Shown here: one piece after another, positions 4,232 to 57,561 of the stretch | Position numbering within the stretch: the stretch's first letter is position 1 | How the letters are laid out: each line of letters begins with the position of its first letter | DNA from: a bacterium | GTDB taxonomy: Bacteria > Patescibacteriota > Minisyncoccia > Phycocordibacterales > UBA6899 | NCBI GenBank assembly: GCA_043743715.1 | Contig: JAYTWK010000015.1 | Span: 6,576-70,575 of the forward strand | Reading direction: 5' to 3' | Length of the DNA stretch: 64,000 nt | The notes under the pieces: generated by a model | Database searches by the model: none | Told to the model about the DNA's origin: nothing | Seen by the model: the letters and a program-made list of their open reading frames with translations, nothing else | Program-made: the position numbers and the translations under genes

Positions 4232-5611
4232 ATGAGCGAGCAAAAAGACATACAAAGCATAACAAAGGCGCATTTTGTGGGACTTGGCGGCATCGGCATG
4301 TCGGCGATACTGCGGCTATTTGCTGCGCGCGGTATTTTTGTTTCCGGCTCTGACCTCAACCTGCCTCCGATTGAAACACTTCCTATCGGTGACTTTTATC
4401 CTTCGCATGACGCGGCATATGTACCAATCGACGCGAGCCTTTTGATTTATTCAGCGGCTGTACCTCCGACCAACCCGGAGCGTATGCGCGCAAAAGAACT
4501 GAATATTCCTGAAATGAGTTACCCCGAAGCACTCGCTTTCGTCACTGCACCGTACACAACCATCGCGGTCTCCGGTACTCACGGCAAATCCACTTCGACG
4601 GCGCTCTTGGGTAAACTGTTCGAAGCAGGAAATCTTCATCCGTCGGTGATTGTCGGTGCTGAGGTCCCGGGGTGGAATGATCACAACCTGCTACGCGGGG
4701 AGGGCGACGTATTCATCGTCGAAGCATGCGAATACCGAAGACACATGATGAATCTCTCTCCGCAGACGATTGTGCTTACCAATCTCGAGCTCGATCATCC
4801 CGACTATTATCGCGATCTCGAGGATATCAAATCAGCGTTTAAAGACTACATCGGAAAACTCGGCGGAGAAGGACTCCTGGTCGCCAACAATGACGATGCG
4901 AACATCCGCGATATCATGCGCGGCTTCGACGGTATCGTGGTTTCGTTCGGAGTCGGGTCCGGTGCGGATCTCGTCGCCAAGAACATCCACACAGGAGCAG
5001 ACCGCCAGACATTTGAGATGGTATGGAAAGGCGCATCGCTCGGAGAATTCACCACGCCGCTTCCAGGGCTCTACAACATCTACAACATTCTTTCTGCCTG
5101 CGCCGCATATCTCGCCTACAGTGGAAAGAGTGAGGCTATCCAGGGAGTCTTAGATGCCTTTCACGGCGTCGGCAGACGTTTCGAAGTCGTCGGTATGCTC
5201 GATAGTACCATCATCGTCTCGGACTATGCACACCATCCGACCGCGCTGCGTGCTGTGGTCGAAGCGGCACTCGCCCGCTACAAAAACAAGCGCGTCCTTA
5301 CCATCTTCCGTCCACACCAAAGAGAGCGCACACAGAAGCTATTCGATCAGTTCGTGGCAGTAATGGGAACTATTCCGGCACTCCTTCTGATAGAAATCTA
5401 TGATGTCGCAGGACGAGAGGAAGGTATGAATATCAGCTCACGCAATCTCATCGCGAGCATACAGGAAAAATTCCACAATCCACAGATCATCTATGCGAAG
5501 GACCTGATCGAAGCCGAAGAGATAGCGCGCACGCAGGCAGAGCACTTCGACGTCATGCTGGTGGTCGGTGCAGGAGATGCCGACCAACTCGCGTATCAGC
5601 TGGTAAAATAA
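4232..5611 (+). CDS. murC: UDP-N-acetylmuramate--L-alanine ligase MurC
   Basis: GLGGIGMSAI Rossmann motif, GTHGKSTSTAL P-loop, and Mur ligase middle and C-terminal domains. Confidence 0.9.
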   Translation: MSEQKDIQSITKAHFVGLGGIGMSAILRLFAARGIFVSGSDLNLPPIETLPIGDFYPSHDAAYVPIDASLLIYSAAVPPTNPERMRAKELNIPEMSYPEALAFVTAPYTTIAVSGTHGKSTSTALLGKLFEAGNLHPSVIVGAEVPGWNDHNLLRGEGDVFIVEACEYRRHMMNLSPQTIVLTNLELDHPDYYRDLEDIKSAFKDYIGKLGGEGLLVANNDDANIRDIMRGFDGIVVSFGVGSGADLVAKNIHTGADRQTFEMVWKGASLGEFTTPLPGLYNIYNILSACAAYLAYSGKSEAIQGVLDAFHGVGRRFEVVGMLDSTIIVSDYAHHPTALRAVVEAALARYKNKRVLTIFRPHQRERTQKLFDQFVAVMGTIPALLLIEIYDVAGREEGMNISSRNLIASIQEKFHNPQIIYAKDLIEAEEIARTQAEHFDVMLVVGAGDADQLAYQLVK

Positions 5612-53768: not shown

Positions 53769-53948
53769 ATGATTATCCGTATCCTCATCGCCTTCGTCAT
53801 CTTTGCAGGACTCGCATACTATTTTAATATCGACGTGCGTACTGTGGTCGATAAGAGTGGCGTCCCTGCCTGGCTTGCCGAACACGGCGTGAGGACCAGT
53901 GCCACGAGCTCAGGCGTATCAGCAACAAACGCATCGCAAGGCCTATGA
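53769..53948 (+). CDS. Possible small membrane protein (59 aa), overlapping the NUDIX start by 4 nt (ATGA)
   Basis: Manual ORF MIIRILIAFVIFAGLAYYFN... with one TM helix. The ATGA overlap suggests translational coupling. Confidence 0.3.
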   Translation: MIIRILIAFVIFAGLAYYFNIDVRTVVDKSGVPAWLAEHGVRTSATSSGVSATNASQGL

Positions 53949-54400
53949 TCTGGCAACTGCTCTACGAACTCGCGCACACTCTACGACGTATCTATTGGTT
54001 TATCGTCCATCCAAACACACGCGGGGTGAAAGTGGTCATCTTGCATGAAGGCAAATACCTGTTCATAAAACACGGCTATGGAGTAAAACGCTGGACACTT
54101 CCGGGCGGCGGCATCAAGAAGAGCGAGACACCCGAAGCAGCTGCCAAGCGCGAAGTATGGGAAGAGGTCAGACTTGATCTCCATGCACTGCGTCCGATAG
54201 GAAGTTTTGTCACCACACTCGAATATAAGCACGATACGGTGCACTGCTTCTTCGCGACCACATTGCGCGAGAAGCCAATACTCCATCGCGGTGAAGTCAT
54301 TGCATACGGCTGGTTCCCCAAGAACGATCTGCCAAGTGATATCTCTATGAACTCAAGGAAGACGTTTGAACTACTTGAAGCGTACTCACACAAGAACTGA
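53945..54400 (+). CDS. NUDIX hydrolase
   Basis: Nudix box GGGIKKSETPEAAAKREVWEEVRL. Confidence 0.75.
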   Translation: MIWQLLYELAHTLRRIYWFIVHPNTRGVKVVILHEGKYLFIKHGYGVKRWTLPGGGIKKSETPEAAAKREVWEEVRLDLHALRPIGSFVTTLEYKHDTVHCFFATTLREKPILHRGEVIAYGWFPKNDLPSDISMNSRKTFELLEAYSHKN

Positions 54401-54488
54401 TTTCGCTTTCTGAACAAAGAATCTCACATGAAACGCGTAGTCCATACAGTGCCTTGTGCGACATAAATCTACCTGTTAAGATTGCTCT

Positions 54489-55124
54489 ATGGGGGCAAAC
54501 ATTAACTGGACTGAGGAAAAAATCGCAAACGGTTTTGCGCGATTTATCGAAGAGCATGGTCATGCTCCCACCTCACGCGAAATCGATACCTATCCGCACT
54601 TGCCGTCATCACGACAGATTCAACGGCGTTATGAGGGAGGGTTGCCAGCACTGCGTAAACGCTTACAGCTCGCGGGGCCGGAAGACTTCACAAAAGGCGC
54701 TTATAGTTCAGAGCGCGCACGTACTATTAATAAACGCGCTCACCATCTTGAAAAAGAAGTGTGTGACTATCTGGTGGGAAGATTCGGAAAGCCCTATGTC
54801 CATAGGGAATACTTTTTTATCGACGATCGACGAACAAGAACGGACTTTTTCATATATTGTAAGAACGGTAATTTTTGTGTTGATGTATTTTATCCCAAAG
54901 ATCGACATAATCTGATCAATTGCCTCAACAGCAAAATGCGCACATATGGATATGCAGCTATGCTCGAATTCCCGGTCATATTTTTAATGATGAACCATGA
55001 AATCAGTGGGGCGGAGGTCACGCAAATAATCGAGCAAAAGAAGAAGAAACTACACTTGAAGCAACATGTCATGACGTATGAAAGATTCAGGAAGTATGTG
55101 GAGACAAAAATGCCGCTTGATTAG
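54489..55124 (+). CDS. Hypothetical protein in an AT-rich stretch; the N-terminus resembles the small DNA-binding module seen at homing-endonuclease and phage-protein N-termini
   Basis: WTEEKIANGFARFIEEHGHAPTSREIDTYPHLPSSRQIQRRYEGGLPALRKRL pattern. AT-rich coding sequence. Confidence 0.35.
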   Translation: MGANINWTEEKIANGFARFIEEHGHAPTSREIDTYPHLPSSRQIQRRYEGGLPALRKRLQLAGPEDFTKGAYSSERARTINKRAHHLEKEVCDYLVGRFGKPYVHREYFFIDDRRTRTDFFIYCKNGNFCVDVFYPKDRHNLINCLNSKMRTYGYAAMLEFPVIFLMMNHEISGAEVTQIIEQKKKKLHLKQHVMTYERFRKYVETKMPLD

Positions 55125-55275
55125 TAGGTGTGAGTAAAACGTTATGTAGTATACTTATTATAAGCAAATGTCGTATAACGTATCTGATAAAAAGATATAT
55201 TGTGCGACGCATTGGCAAAGAGAAGCTGCAAGCCCGTAAGCTTGCTTTGCTTCTATTCCCTACATTGCCGTGTAC

Positions 55276-55908
55276 TTATTCCGGTACTGTTTTTTGTCTT
55301 TCGAGTTTGTCGTAACGAGCCATAAGTTCTGCGGTCTCTAAAATGTGTCCGGTCATTTTTGCTTCAACATCGGCTTTTGATGCCCCTGCCGGAATATCTA
55401 ATTTTCGGTCCAAGGCATAGAGTTTGAAGAAATACCGGTGCTCACGGTCCGGCGGACACGGACCGATGTATCCGGGCTTGCCGGCGCCATTTAACCCCTG
55501 AATGCCTACTAACGTCGATGAGGCTGATACTCCAGAGACCTTCGGGTCGATGTTGTAGACTACCCAATGCACGAACATGCCGTCGGGTTTGATCGATGTC
55601 GGAACATCAGGGTCATCTACAATGAGCGCAAGTGTGACCGTACCAGCCGGGACATTAGACCAAGCGAGGTCGGGATTGGCATTAGCCGCATCACATGTGT
55701 AGAGGCTTGGTATCATCTGATTCTGTCCGAATGCGCTGCTGGTGATGTTCATGGTTGTTGTTTGTGCGGATGGTTGTACTTGTTGTTGCGCCGGCGTACG
55801 ATTTTGCGACTCATGCATGTTCTCCGCCTTATTATTATACAACGTTAGTACATATAGAGTCAAGAGTACTATACATGCGATTCCAACAATTATATATGTA
55901 TTTTTCAT
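55276..55908 (-). CDS. PEBP / YbhB-YbcL family (Raf-kinase-inhibitor-like) protein, secreted or anchored
   Basis: GPCPPDREHRYFFKLYALD signature. N-terminal TM or signal peptide. Confidence 0.75.
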   Translation of the reverse strand: MKNTYIIVGIACIVLLTLYVLTLYNNKAENMHESQNRTPAQQQVQPSAQTTTMNITSSAFGQNQMIPSLYTCDAANANPDLAWSNVPAGTVTLALIVDDPDVPTSIKPDGMFVHWVVYNIDPKVSGVSASSTLVGIQGLNGAGKPGYIGPCPPDREHRYFFKLYALDRKLDIPAGASKADVEAKMTGHILETAELMARYDKLERQKTVPE

Positions 55909-55971
55909 ATAAAGTTTGTTTTACTATCCTTCTCCACAATTACCGATATAAGCGACAACAAAAATTGGTTC

Positions 55972-56721
55972 TCATTCTTTCGGCCAGCTCAACTGTTCGT
56001 CGGCACGGGGCTTGGTCTTAAGGACCAAGGTGCGATTCTCGGCGTCATATTCATCGTACCTCGCTTCTGCCTCTCCCCTTTCCCTGCCGCCTTCCACGTG
56101 ACGCTTCACGGTGTGTGCGCGCAGCGACGCGGCATCATCGTCGAGAAAATAACTATGGTCATAAAGTGCCGGCAAATCCTTCCACCCAGTCCCGCCATAC
56201 AAGAGCCACAGACCCTCTATCAGCATAAGTGCAGGTCCCTCGGGTACCTTTATCACTCCCTGCATCGGCTCGTGCAGTTTACGCGAATAGACCGGCAGTC
56301 TTAAACTGGTACCGTTCTTAAAGTCTTCAAGATCTCGCAGAAGTGCGGGTACATCATAGGTATCGTAGCGGCCCTTCACATCTTTCAAAGTCTCTTCCTC
56401 TTCCCCTGCTTTTGTCTGCGAGAGATACTCATTCGGAAAATGATAAGCGTCGATAGAGACAGGAACGATGCGCACACTCTCGTCTATCTGCTTACCGATA
56501 GTTTCTGCAAGTATTGAGAGATATGACTTCCCGCTCCCTGAAGGGCCGACGATGGAGACAATCTGTCTGCGCTGTTCACCATCGCCAGTACTCTCCTTCT
56601 TATAATTCGAAATGAGTCTTTCGGTAAAACGAATGACAAATTCTTTCCTCTCCACACTTAAATGTGTGCAGTCGATTTCCTGCTCGGTAACGATGATGTG
56701 GTCGGGAAATTCGATGTTCAT
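55972..56721 (-). CDS. P-loop kinase of the PRK/uridine-kinase/pantothenate-kinase (CoaA-like) family
   Basis: Walker A GPSGSGKS. ..VSIDAYHFPN.. and ..PVYSRKLHEP....LMLIEGLWLL.. parallel CoaA/UK motifs. Confidence 0.5.
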   Translation of the reverse strand: MNIEFPDHIIVTEQEIDCTHLSVERKEFVIRFTERLISNYKKESTGDGEQRRQIVSIVGPSGSGKSYLSILAETIGKQIDESVRIVPVSIDAYHFPNEYLSQTKAGEEEETLKDVKGRYDTYDVPALLRDLEDFKNGTSLRLPVYSRKLHEPMQGVIKVPEGPALMLIEGLWLLYGGTGWKDLPALYDHSYFLDDDAASLRAHTVKRHVEGGRERGEAEARYDEYDAENRTLVLKTKPRADEQLSWPKE

Positions 56722-56798
56722 ATGTATATTCTATCAGTTCTTTAAAATTCTGAGTTAGGCTAGCGGATTCCTCCTTTTTTGTTATACTCGAATCTACT

Positions 56799-56869
56799 CG
56801 GGCTATCGGATAGTGGTAGTCTACATGCATGGGGTGCATGTGGCGGCAGTTCGATTCTGCCTAGCCCGA
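56799..56869 (+). tRNA. tRNA-Pro (anticodon GGG), no encoded CCA
   Basis: Manual cloverleaf: acceptor cgggcta/tagcccg (C1:G72, A73). D-stem with two G.U pairs and an AGTGGTA loop. Anticodon stem catgc/gcatg with loop aTGGGgt. T-arm ggcag-TTCGATT-ctgcc. Confidence 0.7.
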
Positions 56870-56905
56870 CAAGTCAACAGTCGCCAAACAAGCAGTTCTA
56901 GCATG

Positions 56906-56960
56906 CAATGGGGTGTCTATATTCATTACTGGGACGGCAGTTCGATTCTGCCTAGCCCGA
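56906..56960 (+). repeat. Duplicated tRNA-Pro 3' portion (anticodon-arm-like segment plus exact T-arm and 3' acceptor strand) with no 5' acceptor strand
   Basis: ggcagttcgattctgcctagcccgac is repeated exactly at 56845-56870 and 56935-56960. Upstream catgcaatggggtg mimics the anticodon arm. No cgggcta 5' partner occurs within 90 nt. Confidence 0.6.
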
Positions 56961-57144
56961 CTGGAAGGAGGTGCTAAGAAAGCGTAGCTTTCGCGGCAGA
57001 ATCGAAAAGCGCAGTCATGTTGAGGCTTTGCGAAACGAACGAGCTGGGGTCGAGAGTACTTAGGATTTTTCCGTGCAAGTAACGGAAAAAGACTTAGTAA
57101 CTCGTGACCGATCTGCTTAATGCCGAAGTTTTGCCAGTATAAAA

Positions 57145-57561
57145 TCACTGCATTTCTTTGCAGGCAGCAGCAGGATGATAGCCTTTCGCGATCGCTTCCT
57201 CGACGCTTGCGAACCAAACTTTATTTGCATCTTTGATGCGTTTTACCCCGCCGCAGGTCGGGAGGTAGTAGGAACGACCCGAGCGAGAACCTACATACAT
57301 TGCTTTCTCTCCCGTCGTCTCCCCTGCCCCAGCCGGGTTATTAGGAGTACTCCTGGCATTTGAAACTGTGGCTGTAGCTTGAGTTATTTTGATGCTTGGG
57401 AGTTTATTTTGCCCTGAATCGCCCTTAGCAATATGATACGCGAGGAAGCCGGAGACTGAAATCAGGCCTATAAATATGAATATAAAGATATCCCGAGGCA
57501 TGTCAGGCAAAGTCTTGACCCCGTTAGAGATCGCGTGCACATAATCTTTACTTTTATTCAT
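57145..57561 (-). CDS. Membrane-anchored protein with a C-terminal Ada-like zinc-binding domain
   Basis: C-terminus YYLPTCGGVKRIKDANKVWFASVEEAIAKGYHPAAACKE matches the Ada metal-binding pattern (..C...KR......F.S..EA...G.RPC..C). N-terminal TM helix. Confidence 0.5.
   Translation of the reverse strand: MNKSKDYVHAISNGVKTLPDMPRDIFIFIFIGLISVSGFLAYHIAKGDSGQNKLPSIKITQATATVSNARSTPNNPAGAGETTGEKAMYVGSRSGRSYYLPTCGGVKRIKDANKVWFASVEEAIAKGYHPAAACKEMQ

Follow-up and report, generated by a model that had tools for sequence, protein, structure and literature searches.

Partial, non-canonical tRNA fragments in prokaryotic genomes have been attributed to integrated elements or to CRISPR activity and treated as annotation noise (van der Gulik et al. 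2023, PMC9897764). The locus described here surrounds an intact tRNA-Pro(GGG) gene in a 64 kb stretch of DNA from a member of the Patescibacteria (GCA_043743715.1, contig JAYTWK010000015.1), the whole of which is referred to as the window; compared loci carry labels of the form Lnnn. It resembles those fragments in that a piece of a tRNA gene lies beside the canonical gene and is not called by tRNA finders, but differs from them in that such pieces here form ordered arrays in one promoter-driven cassette, together with conserved non-tRNA sequence. The second copy of the tRNA 3' half in the window would represent the 3' boundary repeat of a ~91-nt cassette, termed unit 2 (56871-56961), after which would come a degenerate cassette of another kind, termed D (56962 to ~57100). 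Our preferred explanation, to which we give roughly even chances, sees in unit 2 a conserved trailer cassette bounded by the repeat and, after it, a degenerate copy of the D module, the two probably being co-transcribed and acting as folded single strands. What is new is that the modules are conserved across genera, that antisense and sense copies are arranged as a pair, that covariation supports the core of D and that the D arms are tailored to two different tRNAs.

The attL/attR repeats that integrase-mobilised islands leave at tRNA 3' ends, known also from derivatives that lack an integrase and from islands stacked in tandem at a single att site, share with this locus a direct repeat that runs from the T loop to the 3' end past an intact tRNA, cassettes bounded by such repeats, tandem arrays and precise gain and loss, and one homologous module does lie by a decayed serine-integrase gene at a tRNA-Leu. 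They differ in that the segments here are gene-free and only 66-120 nt long, with no recombinase at any tRNA-Pro cassette, while the modules are conserved across genera, show covariation of the RNA type, hold an antisense copy in each D and lie next to upstream genes that belong to the core genome. A second comparison is with tRNA-like structured RNAs, such as the tRNA-like domain of transfer-messenger RNA, whose tRNA-like ends are processed by RNase P and RNase Z. In the predicted fold of D an acceptor-like helix stacks on a helix resembling a T stem, the module abuts the 3' end of a tRNA and it terminates in an acceptor 3' strand with a discriminator; unlike these RNAs, D is ~136 nt long and has no T loop, anticodon arm, open reading frame (ORF) or Rfam match. 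The attC site of integrons is a recombination site that is used as a folded single strand, and it too has two imperfect inverted-repeat pairs around a variable or branched centre, a length of ~60-140 nt and cassettes that accumulate at a fixed site. Here, by contrast, there is no integron integrase and there are no ORF cassettes, the central hairpins and junction nucleotides of D are conserved in sequence and the repeats are the end of a tRNA.

Two further systems were set aside. The group I introns described in tRNAs of Patescibacteria occupy position 35/36 of tRNA-Asn and tRNA-Asp and are much larger (PMC13011429), so that with other tRNAs, another site and another size they are irrelevant here. 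TIGR arrays (PMC12045711) were also considered, but the units at these loci are ~90 nt long and near-identical within an array and do not look like guide arrays.

The repeated 3' end of tRNA-Pro(GGG) and unit 2

The tRNA-Pro(GGG) gene is intact and lies at 56799-56870 on the (+) strand according to ARAGORN, by which it is the sole tRNA in the window; the Rfam tRNA model scores 53.9 bits at 56799-56869, the very position given by an earlier reading made from the sequence only. The tRNA-Pro(GGG) genes of 17 related genome loci match it at 96-100% identity. There are two exact occurrences of the 25-mer GGCAGTTCGATTCTGCCTAGCCCGA, at 56845-56869 and 56936-56960, as against zero matches in 100 shuffles with up to three mismatches permitted. 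The exact duplicate of the 3' half which that reading had noticed is thus real, extending over 26 of 26 nt (56936-56961, +) and comprising the T arm, the 3' acceptor strand, the discriminator and the C that follows; this sense copy is the boundary repeat of unit 2. Similarity between tRNA and copy spans 32 nt at 94% (56839-56870 against 56930-56961) with a start-to-start spacing of 91 nt, and the segment between the repeats measures 66 nt. Only positions 41-72 of the tRNA have a counterpart in register. The anticodon-arm-like piece described before the copy does exist, as the anticodon-loop-like catgcaatggggtg at 56902-56915, but is 13 nt out of register with the tRNA. Neither ARAGORN nor Rfam calls a second tRNA in the region, and both the 5' acceptor strand, as the sequence-only reading had remarked, and the D arm are absent from the copy. 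The inverted tRNA fragment that had been placed near 56990 proved to be the antisense 12-mer GGCAGAATCGAA at 56995-57006 (+), which the repeat finder showed to be complementary at 12 of 12 positions to TTCGATTCTGCC in both copies and which is the perfect antisense of the T loop and 3' T stem. The whole region recurs without change in an independent assembly (L001; Logan SRR23617269).

These features set the locus apart from two familiar classes. An intact, high-scoring tRNA-Pro is present, unlike in the disrupted (split, permuted or intron-containing) tRNAs known from Archaea, a comparison in which bulge-helix-bulge motifs were not searched. Nor does the copy look like a tandem tRNA duplicate or pseudogene, as it is not in register along its length and shows no neutral decay outside the parts that match the tRNA. 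The degenerate tandem tRNA that had been offered as an alternative comes nearer to the facts than a genomic island does, but it fails in that the copy is not decaying and its non-tRNA part has been kept across genera.

A scan for the 25-mer in one genome per species returned 18 loci, all from Patescibacteria (labelled Lloydbacteria, Taylorbacteria, Parcubacteria and, in two cases, 'Saccharibacteria'); 17 of them contain an intact tRNA-Pro(GGG) and nearly all hold additional tRNA fragments, the 5' pieces lying upstream and the 3' pieces downstream. Protein neighbours and a metagenome scan (L024) led to more, for ~25 related tRNA-Pro loci in total. Their common layout is a promoter, 0-4 truncated 5' pseudo-units, the tRNA and then cassettes each of which ends in a tRNA 3' repeat. 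The window has two such downstream cassettes, unit 2 and what is probably a partial D, and none of the 5' pseudo-units, of which most relatives have 1-4 in tandem between promoter and tRNA, each ~89-92 nt long (L006:3758-3940, L019, L020:2196-2380, L021, L022:4571-4960, L017:1-193, L038:7912-8080 and others). A 5' pseudo-unit consists of tRNA positions 1-43, in which the anticodon loop has grown to 12-16 nt (ATATCGGGATAGnGT, for instance), and an AT-rich spacer, and the units are near-identical within a locus. The gain and loss of downstream cassettes is precise and bounded by the repeats: unit 2 is present between tRNA and D in one of L005 and L015, which share their flanking genes, and absent from the other, and D distinguishes L018 from L010 in the same manner. 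Tandem copies also occur, unit 2 being found twice in L024 and a D being followed by the start of a second one in L034.

Single loci add some observations. The 5' arrays are not specific to tRNA-Pro, since in L008 (4213-4370, -) a tRNA-Phe(GAA) has two tandem upstream 5' pseudo-units with a 76-nt period and the start GCCGAGGTAGCT. L013 (4940-5260; Taylorbacteria, JACPHR010000011.1), in which neither ARAGORN nor Rfam calls a tRNA, holds 5' fragments and a cloverleaf like that of tRNA-Pro(GGG), in which the T arm (CCCGG-AGCATTA-CCGGG) is atypical and the acceptor is CGGGGTA/TACCCCG; the 25-mer of canonical T arm and 3' acceptor lies 34 nt past the cloverleaf. Alternatively, the region can be read as a tRNA whose variable region holds a 58-nt insertion. 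By eye only, an IS200-like Y1 transposase ORF was seen ~1.3 kb away. An ORF of 1100 aa, Cas9-like judging by its sequence, occurs in a Patescibacteria metagenome-assembled genome (L011:3400-6702, -), ~800 nt downstream of the tRNA-Pro cassette.

Unit 2 is found in the window, in identical form in L001, and in L005, L007 and L024, the last with its two copies at a 104-nt period; the metagenome scan for it gave nine matches, eight of them chance 18-mer matches and only L024 genuine. Its pattern is GCATGCA(A)TGGGGTGTCTATATTCATT(A)CYGGGACGnCAGTTCGATTCTGCCTAGCCCGAC. The first part of the cassette, at 56871-56901 (+), is a non-conserved spacer with 47-49% identity to L005, L007 and L024, the level of unrelated sequence. 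The non-tRNA part that follows at 56902-56935 (+), made up of catgcaatggggtg and the 20-nt tctatattcattactgggac (56916-56935), is 89-92% identical between the window and the same three loci, as compared with 88-96% for the copy of the tRNA 3' half. Gene conversion from the tRNA cannot account for the conservation of these 34 non-tRNA nucleotides.

The cassette promoter in the window, TTTTTTGTTATACTC at 56770-56798 (+), was located with a weight matrix and includes the extended -10 element TGTTATACT at 56780-56788, which ends 10 nt before the tRNA. The matrix was built from 16 distinct promoters of related cassettes and scores 27.6 at 56770, with 13.6 for the runner-up site in the window, a result that is partly circular as the window's own sequence, shared with L001, is among the 16. 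Across the clade the promoter of the tRNA-Pro cassettes, TTTnTGnTATACTC, is strongly conserved, and the same motif precedes all related cassettes at 9-464 nt ahead of the tRNA. Just 5' of the promoter, at 56759-56770, lies CTAGCGGATTCC, which is also found in L005 and L015 despite their different upstream genes and which might serve as a regulator site or mark a cassette boundary. In reverse complement it bears a weak resemblance to the tRNA 3' end GATTCTGCCTAGCC. That CTAGCGGATTCC, by the start of the neighbouring kinase gene, is a remnant of a D 3' end is doubtful; it is more likely the cassette's own upstream element, because it also precedes the promoter where the kinase is missing, in L005 and L015.

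The D module in relatives and its probable partial copy in the window

D is a ~136-nt element that directly follows the tRNA or unit 2 in L002/L012, L005, L008, L009, L015, L016, L018, L034, L035 and L038. It starts with a Shine-Dalgarno-like GGAGG with GG(A/U)GCUA, after which come the hairpin H1, GGCAGAAUCGAAG, a long hairpin P2, GGGUACUG, a short hairpin P3 with an nGUAR loop and GAGAUUCUGCCUAGCCCGAC. Two helices close it, P0 (GG.GCUA/UAGCCC), which is acceptor-like, and P1 (GGCAGAAUC/GAUUCUGCC). Near its 5' end D carries the antisense of the 3' side of the tRNA T loop and T stem and at its 3' end the final 16 nt of the tRNA in sense orientation; in relatives these antisense and sense copies would together close the fold through P0 and P1. 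For seven D sequences RNAalifold gave a structure of 46 pairs at -42.9 kcal/mol, in which 94.4% of cells are paired as against 32-47% after a shift of the partners by 1-3 columns; compensatory changes are seen in nine pairs, and the observed values were reached by 0 of 500 shuffles. On the tRNA-sense strand G-U pairs outnumber A-C pairs by 24 to 10. A covariance model built from the seven relatives scores 93-156 bits at 10 loci. D thus appears to be a structured RNA, supported by covariation and apparently undescribed. In Rfam it has no match at the gathering threshold, and in the region studied only the tRNA passes; the best other match, to the Clostridiales-2 motif at 56962-57002, reaches 15.8 bits against a threshold of 58.6 (E 1.5). 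That motif and the 5' third of D share AAGGAGG(G)UGCUnAG, a hairpin and CG..UCGAAG, a likeness that is probably due to chance; a search for literature on the motif found none.

A further structured element of ~110-130 nt, here called I, lies inside the D loop of 5' pseudo-units (in L010 after position 38) at L018:4319-4440, L010:5299-5420 and 5479-5600, L009, L022, L008 (two copies), L034 and L035. It has three hairpins, the conserved motifs GUGUGA, GGGAA, GCAAGA and GUGKACAG and a UGUAA loop; 96% of its cells are paired compared with 31-55% after sliding, and 13 of 36 pairs show compensatory changes. I has no Rfam match and scores weakly, at 14-22 bits, with the D model.

In the window only the 5' third of D, at 56962-57006 (+), is readily recognized, aligning with the start of D in at least seven relatives. 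It contains the Shine-Dalgarno-like AAGGAGGTG (56965-56973, +), with GGTGCTA at 56970-56976 complementary to TAGCC, the hairpin H1 (GAAAGC-GTA-GCTTTC, 56978-56992, +) and the antisense 12-mer. The D model scores 26.8 bits (E ~5e-5), well below the 93-156 bits of full members, and this is its sole match in the window even with filters off; it takes in the first 44 nt from the 5' end and, weakly, a 3' strand of P1 (GAUUUUUCC; GATTTTTCC at 57065-57073), while covariance-model alignment recognizes neither P2 nor P3. What would be the rest of D, at 57007-57099 (+), has diverged and is 49% identical to the D of L005, which is background. This part includes a hairpin at 57057-57099, with arms at 57057-57074 and 57082-57099 (18 nt, 83% complementary by the repeat finder), into which the P1 strand falls. 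The hairpin had been described as a terminator-like one at 57068-57093, and it does exist with these longer arms, but it is rejected as a canonical intrinsic terminator since a T run lies 5' of the stem and an A run 3' of it, alike on both strands, so that neither has a 3' U tract; a terminator scan made no call.

Within this putative partial D the antisense 12-mer (56995-57006) pairs with 56941-56952 of unit 2 at 12 of 12 positions and GGUGCUA pairs with TAGCC, so that the antisense segment as a whole pairs onto 56941-56958, in a permuted order with the sense copy upstream. Since the D segment pairs onto the copy in unit 2, the copied 3' half, the inverted fragment and the sequence between them are seen as one structure. 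The window D would thus be without a 3' closing strand of its own, its 5' third pairing instead with the tRNA 3' half in unit 2, and a compact three-way junction would result just 3' of the tRNA. The predicted junction comprises 66 nt with an energy of -32.2 kcal/mol (z -4.1), a stability that 0 of 200 shuffles matched, and L005 folds in the same way.

Origin of the cassettes and competing explanations

The modules are vertically conserved across Lloydbacteria-like Parcubacteria, inside a core gene neighbourhood. According to our preferred reading, unit 2 would be part of the 3' trailer in the transcription unit of tRNA-Pro(GGG) and would be transcribed together with D from the single conserved cassette promoter, copies would be gained and lost through recombination between the direct repeats of the tRNA 3' end, and the modules would act at the RNA level, the likeliest role being that of a stable trailer or a tRNA-like non-coding RNA (ncRNA) domain excised by tRNA-processing enzymes. 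It is possible that they serve as a recombination site in folded form. Either site-specific recombination at the T loop or unequal crossing-over could have given rise to the first repeat. Several observations weigh against this reading. The T-stem position 50 of unit 2 is G in the window, A in L005, C in L007 and T in L024, without compensation, and, being free to vary, it implies that the T-arm hairpin is not what unit 2 conserves; no convincing fold or motif accounts for its conserved 20-nt segment. L007 and L024 have unit 2 and lack D, so that the pairing of sense and antisense copies is not universal, and in the window D may be a non-functional relic, since P2 and P3 are not recognizable. 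An 11-sequence alignment of D, in which 25 of the 46 pairs show compensatory changes, was fitted to the model and therefore leans towards it, and its sequences are related to one another. Co-transcription and processing of the modules are steps that we infer.

The remaining difficulty is the D homologue in L009, the only one outside the tRNA-Pro loci, which adjoins the remnant of a serine integrase and fits a mobile origin at least as well as a host function. The D model matches L009:5426-5556 with 38 bits, and the 3' end of this module equals positions 66-81 of tRNA-Leu(TAG) in 16 of 16 nt while the 5' strand of its P1 is the reverse complement of positions 63-75 of the same tRNA in 13 of 13 nt. 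As the D arms co-vary with their cognate tRNA, be it Pro or Leu, the pairing can be argued to matter. Over L009:4099-5556 the order is tRNA-Leu(TAG), a 378-aa ORF on the opposite strand and the D-like module. The ORF has Recombinase and Zn_ribbon_recom domains and no catalytic N-terminal (resolvase) domain, and is 22-30% identical to phage serine integrases; its viral relatives, at 27-30% identity, have neither D nor a tRNA nearby. The locus has the layout of a decayed integrated element, with tRNA, integrase remnant, module and repeat, or an integrase element may have inserted between the tRNA and a resident D. A recombinase origin of the repeats is possible, given that a D homologue matched to tRNA-Leu adjoins a decayed serine-integrase gene. 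A bolder proposal, tentative and in our view rather unlikely, is that D and I make up a class of their own, new to science, of tRNA-matched structured modules in Patescibacteria, either recombination sites used as folded single strands or RNAs directing the accretion of cassettes at tRNA genes or else ncRNAs scaffolded on tRNAs. Each copy would then bear a guide-like antisense and a sense version of the 3' side of the T arm of one tRNA (Pro or Leu), a large serine recombinase might act in trans or, alternatively, the ncRNAs might be matured by RNase P and RNase Z, and the repeat and antisense 12-mer of the window would be a permuted and partly decayed member.

The L009 locus speaks for the doubtful, if serious, possibility that the modules are non-functional att scars, that is, remains or miniature derivatives of elements serially integrated at the T loop and 3' end of tRNA-Pro by a site-specific recombinase, each insertion regenerating the tRNA end and pushing the old one downstream, with the likeness across genomes reflecting repeated related insertions. 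The repeats span exactly the T loop to the 3' end and are direct and downstream, insertions and deletions are precise and repeat-bounded, accretion is in tandem, and the orientation of the cassette is opposite between the same flanks when the window is compared with L002 and L006. So much of the att-type repeat proposed from the sequence alone stands; the island cargo does not, and an att-type duplication of the tRNA end is possible only for the 66-250 nt downstream of the tRNA. No recombinase was found at any of the ~25 tRNA-Pro cassettes or in the window, the segments between repeats measure only 66-120 nt, and BLAST against phage and plasmid collections and scans of viral contigs for the tRNA core, unit 2 and one D pattern gave no true match, though these collections may under-sample Patescibacteria. 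(Two viral-contig matches to a degenerate D pattern were discarded as chance because neither D nor the tRNA was present.) The compensatory changes and one-strand G-U bias of D fit selection that acts on a single strand in its folded form, the independent assembly holds the same copy as the window, and the 5' arrays at tRNA-Pro and tRNA-Phe are plain tandem duplications spanning the tRNA start, for which no integrase is needed. These arrays point instead towards neutral, roleless partial tandem duplication by slippage or unequal crossing-over at the palindromic anticodon stem, with gene conversion keeping the copies alike, as do the regular start-to-start spacing of 89-104 nt, the near-identity of units within a locus (L017, L019, L021, L022 and L024) and the exactness of the tRNA-matching parts (26/26 in the window, 30/30 in L006). 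Such a process is nevertheless improbable, because gene conversion from the tRNA can maintain neither the 34 non-tRNA nucleotides of unit 2 nor the covarying P2 and P3 of D, and because it predicts that the 3' flank of the tRNA is repeated after the copy, which in the window it is not; in streamlined genomes such as these, moreover, neutral DNA is expected to be short-lived. That the copy is a separate small gene, for a minihelix-like RNA (TGGG as partial 5' acceptor strand, T arm and 3' acceptor) with a promoter of its own within the 20-nt segment or for an alternative 3' half of the tRNA, is very improbable. The TGGG (CGGG in L007) right before the T arm can pair with the acceptor CCCG, and a TATATT in the conserved segment resembles a -10 box, but the best score of the clade promoter matrix on the 20-nt segment is -4.7 (rank 1597), the T-stem pair 50-64 of the minihelix is broken in three of four lineages and the minimum-free-energy fold prefers the antisense pairing. 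An alternative 3' half would change nothing, the two 3' halves being identical in the window.

Neighbouring genes and implications

The genes around the cassette, assigned by scans with Pfam and NCBIfam models, are a NUDIX gene (53945-54400), a 211-aa ORF (54489-55124) with only a sub-threshold HNH_repeat match, a YbhB/PEBP protein gene (55276-55908) and, outside the feature itself, a core and syntenic gene of the nucleoside/nucleotide kinase family (55972-56721, -; Pfam PRK, NCBIfam PRK09270). Past the tRNA lie a core, syntenic gene for a small protein with an Ada/'sunset'-type zinc-binding C-terminus (57145-57561, -), in which the terminator scan placed a terminator-like site (57148-57163, -), and then L27, a MazE-like ORF, L9 and an S41 peptidase; the MazE/AbrB-type antitoxin-like ORF between L27 and L9 (58222-58503, -) matches Pfam MazE_antitoxin with 1.1e-10. 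The order in L002 (GCA_043744595.1), kinase-PEBP-NUDIX-59aa-M23-GluRS-MurG-FtsW, matches that of the window, and L004 (GCA_964395465.1) has S41-L9-L27-small protein-HxlR-tRNA-Pro-kinase. The kinase adjoins tRNA-Pro in L002, L004 and L009, and homologues of the zinc protein border the cassette in L006, L007, L009, L016 and L032-L036. The cassette (56799-57100) is inverted in the window relative to most relatives (L002 with L006, L009, L034, L035), L016 sharing the window's orientation with respect to the zinc-protein gene: between the same flanks the window has kinase (-), cassette (+) and zinc protein (-), whereas in GFS_5687, whose contig ends L006 and L002 overlap at the tRNA, all are co-directional.

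The block at 54400-56760 had been taken for a low-GC accessory region and, with the repeat, for part of a decayed integrated element. The GC content drops to 0.36-0.41 only at ~54800-55400 and is 0.43-0.54, like the flanks, over the remainder. The 211-aa ORF has 198 homologues of 50-71% identity across Parcubacteria, none of the Pfam, NCBIfam or PHROG families being assigned to it, and is always found after FtsW-MurG-GluRS-M23 and a 54-59-aa ORF; in L037-L040 its slot is FtsW-MurG-GluRS-M23-54aa-ORF, as in the window, and L038 carries on from there to HxlR, tRNA-Pro, L27, L9 and S41. Far from being absent in relatives that keep the tRNA, the kinase, PEBP and NUDIX genes of the block are present and syntenic in L002. 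No recombinase was detected among the neighbours by Pfam scans of 53.9-59.4 kb, and tblastn of the L009 serine recombinase gave no match in the window. The geometry is also wrong for an island, because an element at the 3' end of a (+)-strand tRNA would lie downstream between the repeats, where here there are 66 nt. Since the upstream genes are syntenic core genome in related Parcubacteria, the accessory-island reading is refuted: this block is core genome and not cargo delimited by the repeated tRNA end.

On its own, a repeated tRNA 3' end is no evidence that the neighbouring genes form an island. Fragments beside tRNA genes are usually read as integrase scars or noise, but in this clade, whose genomes are very small, they are ordered and conserved parts of a cassette. 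If the modules are functional RNAs, they would reveal in Patescibacteria a new layer of RNA biology linked to tRNAs; as recombination sites, they would constitute a miniature tRNA-targeted cassette system.

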